Shown in pieces: positions 39,322 to 41,974 of a stretch of 64,000 nucleotides of DNA. Below the pieces are notes generated by a model, which searched no databases, was not told the DNA's origin, and saw nothing but the letters and a program-made list of their open reading frames with translations. How positions within the stretch are numbered: position 1 is the stretch's first letter; each line of letters opens with the position of its first letter. A program made the translations under genes and the position numbers. The stretch is from Alphaproteobacteria bacterium. GTDB taxonomy: Bacteria > Pseudomonadota > Alphaproteobacteria > SHVP01. Location of the stretch: the NCBI GenBank assembly GCA_038121105.1, contig JAYONB010000005.1, positions 130,274 through 194,273 of the forward strand, given 5' to 3'.

Positions 39322-40734
39322 CTAGTGGCGGTCCCGAGGGGGTGTATGGAGGGCGAAGGATTGGGTCTGATAGGTCCAGAAGTGCAGTTTTGGCGACCAG
39401 TGCGCGGCAGGAAGCCCAGCTTTGCGCCATAGGTGCTCGAGGAAAAGCGGACCATGCGGCACTTGTTGCCACACTTGCGGCAGGAAGGTTGCCCGCTTGT
39501 CGCCTTCGCGAACGATGAGGCCGTCGATACCAGGCCGCAAGGCCGCTAAGAGCGCCCCCTTACTTGCCGCGGCGATCGGCGTTGGCGCACTCAGGACTGA
39601 AACCTCCAGGGCGTTGATTTGTGCAAACTCTTCGGCATTCAGGGGCGGGAACCGGGGGTCGCGAAACGCCGCCGCGAAGGCGTTGTCCGCCACATCCACG
39701 ACGAGCGGTCGCTGCGCGGTAAGCGATCCGATGCACCCGCGCAGTCTGTTCTTGAGTTTCAAGGTGACGAACGACGCGCCAGGTTCTCCCAAGGGCGGGG
39801 CATAGCCGTCGGGATTGATGGATAGGGGATGACCGTTGGCGAGCCCGTGACGGATGGATTGCCCTGCAACGTGCAGAACGACCTCGCGCTCGCCGAGGGA
39901 CAGACCTTGTGTGCCCGAGTCCTGAAACCAGATCGACGCATATCCTACCACCCGATCCCTGTCGCCGGCGGTGTCGCCCGATGTTCGATGATCCAGCAAG
40001 TGTGCTTCCAGCCCCGCCGTCTTCGCAACTTCGATCAATCCTTTTATCGGCAACCGACCGCAAGCCCCTTCGTCGGAGATGCCGTCGGCATTGAGTTTCG
40101 TGATCGCCTCCAGCGTGTCGTGGTCGAGTCTTTTGGCGGATTCGTCGTCGAGGTAATGGCTGAGATCTGAACTGACCACCACGAGTGTTCCGGGTTCGGC
40201 TGTCATCACCCTGATGACGTCGGCAACTTGTTCTGGGGTTGCGGCGCCAACGATCAACGGGATCACCGTAAACGATTCAAGGCTGCGCTGCAGAAATGGA
40301 AGGTGCACTTCGATGCAATGCTCGGCTGCGTGGGCGTCATCGCGCACGGAGACACATTCCAGGGTGTCGAGCGCTGCAATCGCCTCGGTATCGACCGGCA
40401 CCATCCCCAGTGGCGTTCTAAACGTCGCCGCGCTAGGGGCGGCGATACCCTGGAAGGCAACACGATGAGCCGGACCGAGGATCAGCACGCGCTGGAACTC
40501 GGAGCGAAACCGGGCCAGGGGTTGGTAGGCGCGCGCTGCCGTTTGTCCTGAGTAGATGAACCCGGCATGCGGGGCGACGATCGCAAATGGCGCTCGGCCG
40601 GGAGGACGCTGGCGTGCGTTGCGCGCCTCATCCATCATGCTGGCGATCAATGCGTCCAACTCGCGCCGATCGGCCGGGTAGAAAAGGCCAGCGACGGCGG
40701 CGGGCCGGGAACGACGGGCGTTTAATTCGCTCAT
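39322..40734 (-). CDS. AmmeMemoRadiSam system fusion protein: N-terminal protein B (Memo1-like) + C-terminal protein A (AMMECR1 domain)
   Basis: 470 aa. The N-terminal part has the Memo signature (GLFYPAD...IVAPHAGFIYSG). The C-terminal part has the AMMECR1 signature (LRGCIGSL...FRDPRFPPL...ATFLPQVW). Confidence 0.8.
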   Translation of the reverse strand: MSELNARRSRPAAVAGLFYPADRRELDALIASMMDEARNARQRPPGRAPFAIVAPHAGFIYSGQTAARAYQPLARFRSEFQRVLILGPAHRVAFQGIAAPSAATFRTPLGMVPVDTEAIAALDTLECVSVRDDAHAAEHCIEVHLPFLQRSLESFTVIPLIVGAATPEQVADVIRVMTAEPGTLVVVSSDLSHYLDDESAKRLDHDTLEAITKLNADGISDEGACGRLPIKGLIEVAKTAGLEAHLLDHRTSGDTAGDRDRVVGYASIWFQDSGTQGLSLGEREVVLHVAGQSIRHGLANGHPLSINPDGYAPPLGEPGASFVTLKLKNRLRGCIGSLTAQRPLVVDVADNAFAAAFRDPRFPPLNAEEFAQINALEVSVLSAPTPIAAASKGALLAALRPGIDGLIVREGDKRATFLPQVWQQVPHGPLFLEHLWRKAGLPAAHWSPKLHFWTYQTQSFALHTPPRDRH

Positions 40735-40740
40735 TGCGTC

Positions 40741-40759
40741 ACCATCTTACTAAGATGGT
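40741..40759. promoter_or_regulatory. perfect 9-1-9 inverted repeat ACCATCTTA-c-TAAGATGGT in the 52-bp divergent intergenic region of the AmmeMemoRadiSam genes (candidate operator)
   Basis: Seen directly in the sequence. It lies 7 nt from the start of the minus-strand fusion gene and 28 nt upstream of the radical SAM ATG. Confidence 0.4.
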
Positions 40760-40786
40760 ATCTCGATAATACGGCGGGAGGAACGA

Positions 40787-41974
40787 ATGTCCGAACGCAT
40801 CACGCAGCCGGCCTTAGACGCACCGTCGACCGTGCCAGGGCGCTATTGGGAACGCCTCAGCGACGGACGGCTTCAGTGCAACGTCTGCCCCCGTTTCTGC
40901 CGGCTTCATGAAGGTCAGCGCGGCCTTTGCTTCGTTCGCGCGGCAGGTCCCGAGGGAATCGTTTTGACCAGCTACGGCCGGTCCAGCGGTTTTTGCGTCG
41001 ATCCGATCGAGAAGAAGCCGCTCAATCACTTCTTGCCGGGTTCGGCCGTCCTTTCCTTCGGGACTGCGGGGTGCAACCTCACGTGCAAGTTTTGTCAGAA
41101 CTGGGACATGAGCAAGTCACGGGAAATGGACACCCTCGCCGATGCCGCATCGCCTGACACGCTGGTTCGCGCCGCTATCGGATTGGGATGCAGATCTGTC
41201 GCGTTTACCTACAACGACCCCGTGATCTTTCTTGAATATGCGGTTGATGTCGCGGTTGCGTGCCGCACCGCCGGTATCAAGCGGGTTGCCGTCTCCGCGG
41301 GCTATGTGACGCCGCCCGCCCGACGGGAGTTTTTCGCGGAAATGGATGCCGTCAATATCGACCTCAAGGCGTTTTCCGAGAACTTTTACCGCAGCATTTG
41401 CGGCGGTCATCTTCAGCCCGTTCTCGACACGCTGATGTATCTCGTGCACGAAACATCAGTATGGACCGAAATCACGACACTCCTGATTCCGGGCGAGAAC
41501 GATTCCGATGAAGAACTCAATGCCATGTGCGGCTGGATTGCGGAGAACCTCGGTCCGGATGTCCCGCTGCATTTCTCTGCGTTTCATCCCGACTGGAAGA
41601 TGCCCGACCACCCGCATACGCCCCATTCGACGCTGATCCGCGCACGCGCGATCGCGCAGCGCCAAGGTCTCCACTACGTCTACCTCGGCAACGTGCACGA
41701 CGCCGAAGGCTCAAGCACCTACTGCGTGACGTGTGGTACCCGCCTTATCGAACGAGATTGGTACAAATTGGGCGAATGGACCCTCGACGACGACGGGCAC
41801 TGTCTGAAGTGCGGCGCGCGGATGGCGGGCGTCATCGACGGACCGCCCGGAACATGGGGCCGCCGCCGTCTGCCGGTCCGGCTGAGCGACTTCGAACCCG
41901 GTGGTCGAAAGCACAATCAACCGATCGATCAGAGCGCAAGACGCCGTGTAGTTCAGCGTCGGCGGAAACCCTAA
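40787..41974 (+). CDS. AmmeMemoRadiSam system radical SAM enzyme (PFL-AE-like) with C-terminal Cys4 zinc-ribbon-like extension
   Basis: 395 aa with CNLTCKFCQNW (CX3CX2C) and glycine-rich SAM-binding motifs. The C-terminus carries CVTCG...CLKCG and an Arg-rich tail. GGGAGG precedes the ATG. Confidence 0.8.
   Translation: MSERITQPALDAPSTVPGRYWERLSDGRLQCNVCPRFCRLHEGQRGLCFVRAAGPEGIVLTSYGRSSGFCVDPIEKKPLNHFLPGSAVLSFGTAGCNLTCKFCQNWDMSKSREMDTLADAASPDTLVRAAIGLGCRSVAFTYNDPVIFLEYAVDVAVACRTAGIKRVAVSAGYVTPPARREFFAEMDAVNIDLKAFSENFYRSICGGHLQPVLDTLMYLVHETSVWTEITTLLIPGENDSDEELNAMCGWIAENLGPDVPLHFSAFHPDWKMPDHPHTPHSTLIRARAIAQRQGLHYVYLGNVHDAEGSSTYCVTCGTRLIERDWYKLGEWTLDDDGHCLKCGARMAGVIDGPPGTWGRRRLPVRLSDFEPGGRKHNQPIDQSARRRVVQRRRKP

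Follow-up and report, generated by a model that had tools for sequence, protein, structure and literature searches.

The AmmeMemoRadiSam (amr) system combines a Memo-like protein B, an AMMECR1-like protein A and a radical SAM enzyme. AMMECR1 and MEMO1 occur in conserved form from archaea to humans and have ties to human disease, which gives the bacterial three-component system wider importance. The fusion of AMMECR1 to a dioxygenase-like gene, adjoining a radical SAM gene, was reported in 2007 (PMC2034487), and RNA base modification has been predicted in connection with this neighborhood and its fusions (PMC2034487; PMC4075521). The fused form is widespread and is annotated in public databases. 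One study found AMMECR1 to be the strongest Pfam indicator of anaerobes (PMC13386939), an enrichment that fits oxygen-sensitive radical chemistry. Our search for functional studies of AmmeMemoRadiSam turned up annotation mentions only, and the literature searched holds no report of a substrate, product or activity for any member.

The locus described here is found in an uncultured alphaproteobacterium, within a 64,000-nucleotide stretch of DNA, here called the window (Table 1). It is very probably an ordinary amr system in the common two-gene form, consisting of an amrB–amrA fusion gene (amrBA) and a divergent amrS. The three components are encoded together: B and A share a single ORF, and 52 bp separate it from the radical SAM gene on the opposite strand. 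The window contains no extra copies of any of them. A preliminary description, made from the sequence alone, had recognized Memo and AMMECR1 signatures in this ORF, and both are present, with APHAG at residue 54 and LRGCIG at residue 331. It had also proposed profile searches for A, B and the radical SAM enzyme, and had named as contrary outcomes a failure of either half against its model or a frameshift between them. All three components score above the curated NCBIfam cut-offs and also match Pfam models, and the two halves lie in one continuous frame. A frameshift or assembly artifact is excluded, because two independent assemblies of the organism (loci L001 and L011) both show this single ORF and the single frame is common to at least 119 homologues.

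Table 1. Features of the amr locus and its flanking genes, in window coordinates.
Feature	Position	Strand	Basis or remark
M23 peptidase	37821-39197		
amrB–amrA fusion gene, 470 aa, ATG start; Memo-like protein B and AMMECR1-like protein A	39322..40734	-	TIGR04336, TIGR04335, Pfam Memo, AMMECR1
AMMECR1 / protein A domain, residues 285-460, with L-R-G-C-I-G motif including C334	39355..39882	-	TIGR04335, Pfam AMMECR1
Inter-domain linker, about residues 271-284, QDSGTQGLSLGERE	39883..39924	-	Gap between domain envelopes
Memo / protein B domain, residues 10-270	39925..40707	-	TIGR04336 match
Divergent control region, 52 bp	40735..40786	.	Sequence and consensus scan
Perfect 9+9 inverted repeat, ACCATCTTA-C-TAAGATGGT	40741..40759	.	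Overlaps the ribosome-binding site of the fusion gene
Sigma-70-like -10 box TATTAT, facing the fusion gene	40771-40766	-	Consensus scan, 1 site
amrS, radical SAM enzyme of AmmeMemoRadiSam, 395 aa, ATG start	40787..41974	+	TIGR04337; Pfam Radical_SAM
[4Fe-4S]/SAM motif C96-N-L-T-C100-K-F-C103-Q-N-W	41072..41104	+	Invariant in AmrS alignment
Weak SLT-domain protein	41971-42690		22.9 bits versus cut-off 21.3
FGase	42891-43802		

The N-terminal half of the fusion protein matches the full length of the protein B model (TIGR04336, positions 1-270 of 270) with 267.3 bits against a cut-off of 26, and Pfam Memo matches residues 12-268 (E 1.4e-60). Its putative metal-site residues are H56, H90, D190, H193 and C225, all of which are invariant in an alignment of 111 fused homologues. 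When the half is aligned to human MEMO1, the APHAG, GP(A/S)H and SSD..H motifs coincide and the three histidines and D190 match; judging from motif resemblance, C225 may be the equivalent of MEMO1 Cys244. A Foldseek comparison with iron-bound MEMO1 (7kq8) gave a target-normalized TM-score of 0.79. The same search also matched DesB and 2-aminophenol 1,6-dioxygenase (E ~1e-7, identity 10-14%), a likeness to extradiol (LigB/PCAD-type) enzymes at the level of fold only, as the Pfam and NCBIfam matches include no dioxygenase family.

The C-terminal half covers positions 2-175 of the 175 in the protein A model (TIGR04335), with 184.6 bits against a cut-off of 99, and Pfam AMMECR1 matches residues 288-460 (E 1.4e-42). 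G333, C334 and G336 are invariant in the same 111-sequence alignment, and the half resembles PH0010 (1vaj) with a target-normalized TM-score of 0.81. The junction, whose nature the preliminary description had left to an alignment, proves to be a variable linker of about 14 aa. Across 119 fused homologues, the distance between domain envelopes ranges from 7 to 112 aa (median 14), and the linker is conserved neither in length nor in sequence and is sometimes low-complexity or tandemly repeated. An AlphaFold2 model of the B–A protein has a pLDDT of 93.2 and a pTM of 0.82, with mean pLDDT dropping to ~80 in the block of residues 271-280. The model is consistent with a defined arrangement of the two predicted domains, although pTM alone is no proof of an interface. 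The earlier suggestion that B and A act as a physical complex is reasonable, and it gains support from this pTM, the fusions in both orders and the abutting arrangement of separate genes.

The divergent partner had been expected to carry CX3CX2C followed by QNW, and C96-x3-C100-x2-C103-QNW is indeed found in a protein that reaches 631.8 bits with the AmrS model (TIGR04337, cut-off 220). The CX3CX2C motif is invariant in 8 AmrS sequences reaching to Planctomycetes. AmrS has an additional N-terminal motif, C31-x2-C34-x3-C38-x9-C48, and a C-terminal CxxC…CxxC motif (C313/C316/C339/C342).

The preliminary description implied that B–A fusions are rare, a view that finds no support here: they occur in several lineages, carry their own JGI name and have been in the literature since 2007. 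The window protein has a 100%-identical public counterpart (P0001), to which JGI gives the name 'protein B/protein A', and the best 120 homologues, of at least 7994 matches, are full-length fusions in 120 of 120 cases. A contig search with the single fusion protein yielded 5 loci, and the frequency survey therefore rests on a scan of 80 metagenome loci anchored on the radical SAM enzyme. The peptide patterns CKFCQNW and GFC[VI]DPIE retrieved 600 metagenome stretches, 597 of which encode relatives; only the best 80 of the 597 were kept, which biases the sample towards the query's own relatives. Both domains are present in 30 of these loci, as fusions in 10 and as abutting B then A genes in 20; where the genes are separate, 23-90 nt lie between the domain matches. 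In 11 loci whose radical SAM gene has 2.5 kb or more of sequence on either side, no A or B gene is nearby, and linkage is therefore not universal. Fused B–A genes are present in Alphaproteobacteria, Betaproteobacteria and Bacteroidota; RefSeq labels them amrB, adjoining amrS, in Ideonella (a betaproteobacterium) and Segatella (Bacteroidota). Planctomycetes carry the reverse A–B fusion. The evidence points to repeated origins of the fusion, with both domain orders represented.

The gap between amrBA and amrS is exactly 52 bp, as the preliminary description had stated. The divergent arrangement is usual for the system and no special feature, being present in 27 of the 30 loci, and the 52-bp spacing is kept only in close relatives. 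This short shared region probably co-regulates the two genes. It includes a GGAGG ribosome-binding site 6 nt ahead of the amrS ATG. The -10 box is at chance level as evidence for a promoter, the scan having given one site against a shuffle mean of 1.0. The 9+9 palindrome could serve as an operator or form a 5'-UTR hairpin. The window has no second copy, with 0 matches expected by chance, and in a 76%-identical relative the palindrome is unchanged, although the flanking intergenic bases differ. The palindrome is degenerate in one other locus (L006) and absent from more distant loci; like the spacing, it is clade-specific. RNA-fold z-scores (-1.3, -4.3 and -0.55) do not tell an RNA hairpin and a DNA operator apart.

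Knowledge of the family suggests a mechanism that would be general to the system. AmrS would reductively cleave SAM at its [4Fe-4S] cluster, and a 5'-deoxyadenosyl radical would take a hydrogen from a substrate in the AMMECR1 cleft, beside the invariant cysteine. The Memo metal center may perform an adjoining redox or hydrolytic step. A short, probably flexible linker joins the Memo-like metal-binding domain to the AMMECR1 domain, and the fusion would hold the two sites in fixed 1:1 proximity. All-against-all clustering of the neighboring ORFs of 90 loci found no further partner gene conserved across lineages and recovered only lineage-specific gene order and spurious ORFs in overlapping frames. 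With no conserved fourth gene, the system probably acts on a component found in all cells, most likely an RNA nucleotide as proposed by Balaji and Aravind, or on a protein of its own. Our confidence in this substrate class is tentative and falls somewhat short of even. A counterpoint to an RNA substrate is that glycyl-radical-enzyme activases, the nearest characterized relatives of AmrS, have proteins and not RNA or small molecules as their targets.

These relatives raise the alternative that AmrS is an activase like PFL-activating enzyme and acts on the B–A protein itself, which would be the working enzyme that AmrS matures. A radical or post-translational modification might then be installed, for example, at the Gly-Cys-Ile-Gly loop of AMMECR1. 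The enrichment of AMMECR1 in anaerobes (PMC13386939) is in keeping with this proposal, as are the invariant G333, C334 and G336 and the lack of a conserved separate substrate gene in the neighborhood. Also, AmrS has solved relatives only among the PFL-activating enzymes (nearest 3c8f, E 2.2e-7), and its secondary NCBIfam matches are nearly all glycyl-radical-enzyme activases. However, even the best of those matches (TIGR02493, 51.6 bits versus a cut-off of 231.75) leaves AmrS far outside the activase families, and it is likewise far under the cut-offs of the remaining activase models. The glycyl-radical motif is RVxG[FWY], from which LRGCIG differs. Eukaryotes retain Memo and AMMECR1 without a radical SAM partner (family knowledge; PMC2034487), and there is no report of a modified B–A protein. 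On balance, maturation of B–A by AmrS is unlikely. The further proposal that AmrS places a radical or covalent modification on the Gly-Cys-Ile-Gly loop, rather than acting on RNA or a small molecule, and that anaerobes thereby have a new class of radical-bearing metalloenzyme in the Memo–AMMECR1 fusion, is more doubtful still. Alternately, the system might make or repair a small molecule or cofactor, not a macromolecule, in which case Memo would be a metal-dependent enzyme of dioxygenase-like type whose substrate is an aromatic or catechol-type intermediate. Some radical SAM enzymes of the small PflA/QueE-like type do act on small molecules, the full set of Memo metal ligands is conserved, and the fold of the Memo half resembles that of extradiol ring-cleaving dioxygenases. 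However, the low sequence identity to those enzymes, the strong anaerobe enrichment, which speaks against O2-dependent ring cleavage, and the absence of transporter or pathway genes conserved alongside amr make this about as improbable as the maturation of B–A.

The flanking genes raise a third alternative. The preliminary description had listed an M23 peptidase, an SLT-like gene and an FGase, all of which are found, and had allowed that these neighbors might be meaningful. If so, amr could be tied to cell-wall remodeling in this alphaproteobacterial lineage, and its substrate or product would be connected with the peptidoglycan peptides that the M23 endopeptidase, the SLT-like transglycosylase and the FGase-family amidohydrolase process. 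The order FGase, amrS, divergent amrBA and M23 is retained in relatives to about 48-50% identity. It persists where amrS and amrBA are parted by an HD-domain gene, a cyclase or an IS element and where other genes have entered between M23 and clpB, and in several relatives amrS and the SLT-like gene overlap stop-to-stop by 4 bp. However, the three neighbors are kept in this one lineage and are absent elsewhere: among the 80 radical-SAM-anchored loci they appear only in the twin from the same organism (L011) and in one relative (L016), the Ideonella, Segatella and Planctomycete loci are without them, and no neighbor is conserved across lineages. M23–clpB–…–prmC–prfA is also found without the amr system, and the whole clpB–prmC–prfA housekeeping block is co-conserved, as is typical of inherited gene order. 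In some relatives the SLT-like gene is missing or swapped for an acetyltransferase; gaps of 73-287 bp between the fusion gene and M23 imply no tight coupling; and the sequence of the B–A protein shows no signal peptide. A link to the cell wall is thus very improbable, and the same low standing applies to the narrower proposal that amr works on peptidoglycan peptides together with the M23 endopeptidase that persistently adjoins it in this lineage, which is less likely than AmrS being an activase. The flanking M23, SLT-like and FGase genes, beside the clpB–prmC–prfA block, read best as inherited gene order. As a separate observation on the window, an AT-skew anomaly at 50-52 kb is accounted for by minus-strand genes for membrane transporters.

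The fusion, its partner and the linkage between them had been annotated and published before, and the locus gives no new handle on the chemistry of the system. What is added here is a rough fusion frequency, with about one in three linked loci fused in a biased sample, and the placing of the cell-wall neighbors as lineage-specific gene order. The clade-specific palindrome in the shared control region is a testable candidate for a regulatory site.

Human MEMO1 (3bcz, 7kq8, 7l5c) and archaeal AMMECR1 proteins (1vaj, 1wsc, 1zq7) share their folds and their metal-ligand and cysteine motifs with the window halves, but they are stand-alone proteins with 28-36% identity to these halves, and the two domains are found together in no solved structure, whether as one chain or as an A:B complex. 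The radical SAM partner that the window locus encodes is missing from eukaryotes. PFL-activating enzyme (3c8f) and other glycyl-radical-enzyme activases resemble AmrS in having a small radical SAM core whose CX3CX2C motif is close to the N-terminus. AmrS differs in failing all activase models by a wide margin and in its extra N-terminal and C-terminal Cys motifs, and no gene for a glycyl-radical enzyme lies near amrS.

The classical three-gene system (TIGR04335, TIGR04336, TIGR04337; Balaji and Aravind 2007, where the neighborhood is AMMECR1–radical SAM–'ring-opening dioxygenase') comprises the same three families in B-then-A order, predominantly divergent from the radical SAM gene, as here. 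Its B and A are separate abutting genes, whereas the window locus has no intervening stop codon and a linker of ~14 aa. The Planctomycete A–B fusions (L003 Blastopirellula and L004 Thermogutta) also encode both domains in a single reading frame, and their adjoining radical SAM enzymes are 59-61% identical to AmrS. They differ in their AMMECR1–Memo order, a ~200-aa unannotated spacer and a radical SAM gene located upstream on the same strand. Counterparts with the same fused architecture are the RefSeq fused amrB genes (Ideonella dechloratans WP_151123310.1 and Segatella hominis WP_218456557.1) and the JGI entries 'AmmeMemoRadiSam system protein B/AmmeMemoRadiSam system protein A'. In Ideonella and Segatella, whose fusions are 46% and 32% identical to that of the window, the radical SAM gene is on the same strand as the fusion and downstream of it, in contrast to the divergent gene and 52-bp gap seen here. 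All of these RefSeq and JGI fusions share with the window locus the order Memo, linker, AMMECR1 in one polypeptide of about 450-510 aa, and an adjoining TIGR04337 gene.

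The amrBA gene encodes protein B (Memo) and protein A (AMMECR1) in a single reading frame, which is divergent from amrS, the gene for the radical SAM partner, across exactly 52 bp. Residues 10-270 of the fusion align with the full length of TIGR04336 (AmmeMemoRadiSam protein B) with 267.3 bits (NCBIfam cut-off 26) and residues 285-460 with the full length of TIGR04335 (protein A) with 184.6 bits (cut-off 99); the 395-aa ORF scores 631.8 bits against TIGR04337 (AmmeMemoRadiSam radical SAM enzyme; cut-off 220). Pfam is concordant, with Memo at 12-268 and AMMECR1 at 288-460 in the fusion and Radical_SAM in the partner. 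The identity given to this locus in a preliminary description is thus borne out by both halves of the fusion and by the partner. The motifs quoted there are also present: the 470-aa ORF has APHAG (residue 54) and LRGCIG (residue 331), and the 395-aa ORF has C96-x3-C100-x2-C103-QNW.

Coordinates of features in the window and, where an L-number is given, in comparison loci (L003, Blastopirellula; L004, Thermogutta)
Feature	Position	Strand	Remarks
amrBA fusion ORF, ATG start, 470 aa	39322-40734	minus	ORF listing
Perfect 9+9 inverted repeat ACCATCTTA-C-TAAGATGGT	40741-40759		52-bp gap; overlaps fusion gene's ribosome-binding region
amrS ORF, ATG start, 395 aa	40787-41974	plus	ORF listing
suhB/mmgR sRNA family RF00519	42816-42891	plus	Rfam, 53.8 bits (gathering score 41)
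tRNA-Val(GAC) gene	43908-43982	plus	Between FGase and prolyl aminopeptidase genes
HD-domain gene, Cyclase-family (PF04199) gene or DDE transposase	L092 4439-5053; L095, L096 about 4155-5220; L010 4402-5760		Between amrS and fusion
Reverse-order fusion	L003 5908-7989; L004 968-2761	amrS strand	Middle of ~200 residues without Pfam match

Neither half of the protein fails the Memo or AMMECR1 models, and no frameshift is seen. Two contigs match the window at 99% identity, one from an uncultured alphaproteobacterial MAG (L001) and the other an independent JGI metagenome contig (L011), and each has one unbroken fused frame. The identical 470-aa protein is present in a public collection (P0001, 36 member sequences), where its JGI name is 'AmmeMemoRadiSam system protein B/AmmeMemoRadiSam system protein A'. 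The same single frame on both contigs and the identical public protein rule out a frameshift artefact as the source of the fusion, which is therefore real. In one relative (L093 5476-6878), gene calling divides the fusion into a 376-aa piece and a 77-aa AMMECR1 fragment, perhaps through a sequencing error or because the gene is frameshifted or a pseudogene. The clpB gene, intact in the window, is two overlapping ORFs in L001.

The fusion is not confined to this lineage. A homology search with the fusion protein gave at least 7994 homologues below 1e-10. Both Pfam domains occur in all 120 of the best matches listed, with query coverage of 93-100% for nearly all of them, and custom HMMs find Memo followed by AMMECR1 in 119. 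For a survey without the fusion as anchor, eight AmrS proteins were aligned (A2) and metagenome contigs were scanned; 597 of 600 candidate stretches encode relatives, and the best 80 of the 597 were annotated with phmmer and HMMs. Among these 80, both domains lie beside the radical SAM gene in 30 loci; in another 11, each with 2.5 kb or more on both sides, the radical SAM gene stands alone. B and A are fused in 10 of the 30 linked loci (one being the twin of the window's organism) and are separate genes, B then A, in 20, where the two domain matches lie only 23-90 nt apart. A fused share of about one third is approximate, because the sample leans towards relatives of the query. Relative to the radical SAM gene, 27 of the 30 are divergent, two lie downstream on the same strand and one is convergent.

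In a weakly resolved neighbor-joining tree of AmrS, fused loci occupy several separate positions among unfused ones, which suggests that the intervening stop codon may have been gained or lost repeatedly. Two Planctomycete loci have the opposite order, AMMECR1 before Memo, in one frame downstream of amrS. Fused genes annotated by RefSeq as 'amrB', with 'amrS' alongside, also occur in a betaproteobacterium, Ideonella dechloratans (46% identity at 97% coverage), and in the Bacteroidota species Segatella hominis (32% identity at 98% coverage). The fusion, for which the locus had stood out, is a common architecture already known from annotation and literature. The inferences in the preliminary description are sensible, and what value the locus retains lies in the function of the whole family.

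The Memo domain ends in a conserved VVGY…F strand, and a spacer of ~14 residues (QDSGTQGLSLGERE) leads to the first AMMECR1 helix. Among 119 fused homologues, the spacer is not conserved, ranges from 7 to 112 aa (median 14) and is often high in Ala, Pro, Gly, Glu and Lys; in one homologue it consists of tandem DAKDGLF repeats. In these respects the junction has the character of a linker. With 111 fused sequences as input, AlphaFold2 gave a model (mean pLDDT 93.2, pTM 0.82) whose confidence dips modestly at the linker and which is compatible with a defined inter-domain arrangement, short of proof. In superposition, the N-terminal half matches human MEMO1 with iron or copper bound and the C-terminal half Pyrococcus PH0010 (target-normalised TM-scores 0.79 and 0.81); structure comparison found no solved chain with both domains. 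The MEMO1 metal-site motifs APHAG, GP[AS]H and SSD..H align with the fusion, and H56, H90, D190, H193 and C225 are invariant across the fused family, as are the AMMECR1 residues G333, C334 and G336.

The 52-bp spacing is common to the close relatives examined, down to about 61% identity; other divergent loci show proxy distances between about 25 and more than 400 bp. Within the gap, a GGAGG site precedes the amrS start by 6 nt, and the inverted repeat there is identical in a 76%-identical relative, where adjacent intergenic bases have diverged. At 61% identity a relative has only a degenerate form, and more distant loci lack the repeat. It may act as an operator in the DNA or, in the 5'-UTR, as a hairpin that overlaps the ribosome-binding site of the fusion gene; fold statistics are compatible with either. 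The prevailing divergent layout makes co-regulation of amrS and amrBA a reasonable supposition, and insertions between the two genes in relatives indicate that the control region tolerates them.

The neighbors previously described, an M23 peptidase, a weak SLT-domain protein and an FGase-family protein, are present, as is a prolyl aminopeptidase, and clpB lies beyond the M23 gene. The order FGase – (SLT-like) – amrS <> amrBA – M23 – clpB – DUF4167 – prmC – prfA (– hisS) is kept in this lineage to about 48-50% identity of the fusion or M23 protein. It withstands an IS element, HD-domain gene or cyclase inserted between amrS and amrBA, or an acetyltransferase in place of the SLT-like gene. Such persistence might suggest a functional tie to the cell-wall enzymes, which we consider very improbable: among the best 80 of 597 radical-SAM-anchored loci, M23, SLT and FGase homologues occur only in the organism's twin and one relative, clustering of all neighboring ORFs found no partner conserved across lineages, and the neighbors in the Ideonella, Segatella and Planctomycete loci are unrelated. 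One genome has M23–clpB–…–prmC–prfA without the amr system. Read most simply, the amr pair is part of an old alphaproteobacterial block whose gene order has been retained.

Other features accompany these genes. The stop codons of the convergent amrS and SLT-like genes overlap by 4 bp (41971-41974; the same holds for the relatives L002 and L006), so that a terminator would not fit between these genes. The match to the alphaproteobacterial sRNA suhB/mmgR lies between the SLT-like and FGase genes and abuts the FGase stop codon; a conserved pairing of FGase with mmgR has been described for alphaproteobacteria. By eye, a plus-strand ORF at 51887-52714 also resembles the FGase family, and the ORF following it (52711-53844, plus) resembles YbdK/GCS2-type carboxylate-amine ligases. 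An AT-skew peak at 50-52 kb is accounted for by minus-strand membrane-transporter genes. Upstream of clpB, the plus-strand ORF 34602-35129 occupies the place of a DUF4167 gene in relatives; within it, three copies of an 18-bp tandem repeat (AAACCAGAGAAGGCCGAA, 34959-35012) encode a PEKAEK-type repeat.

A metal-binding domain of the Memo type thus recurs fused or translationally abutted to an AMMECR1 domain whose cysteine is invariant; the pair is linked to a radical SAM enzyme of its own, itself highly conserved, and a fourth conserved partner is absent. AmrS would generate a 5'-deoxyadenosyl radical that would act on a substrate bound in the cleft of AMMECR1, and an adjoining step would take place at the metal site of Memo. 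In one study AMMECR1 was the strongest Pfam indicator of anaerobic bacteria, at 50.7% of anaerobes versus 3.4% of aerobes (PMC13386939), which fits oxygen-sensitive radical chemistry and speaks against O2-dependent ring cleavage by the Memo domain. As no substrate gene accompanies the system, its target is probably either the B-A protein itself or a component that all cells share. Our favored reading, held tentatively, is that a macromolecule, most likely RNA, would be modified; here we follow arguments from the RAGNYA fold and from archaeal NFACT/Mut7-C context (PMC2034487, PMC4075521). Self-directed activation, in which the B-A protein would be the target of AmrS, agrees with the missing substrate gene and seems unlikely overall, and we are similarly doubtful that the amr system performs small-molecule chemistry.

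AmrS is 59-61% identical between the window's alphaproteobacterium and Planctomycetes. In addition to CX3CX2C-QNW, the enzyme carries a conserved C-x2-C-x3-C-x9-C motif at the N-terminal end and paired CxxC…CxxC at the C-terminal end, from which we infer a putative auxiliary metal site and a putative zinc ribbon. Its basic C-terminal tail (GGRKHNQP…, then an Arg-rich end; residues about 372-395, window 41900-41974) is conserved in the close relatives checked and missing from more distant AmrS. The nearest solved relatives of AmrS are PFL-activating enzymes (E 2e-7), and most of its secondary family matches, every one scoring far below cut-off, are to activases of glycyl-radical enzymes.
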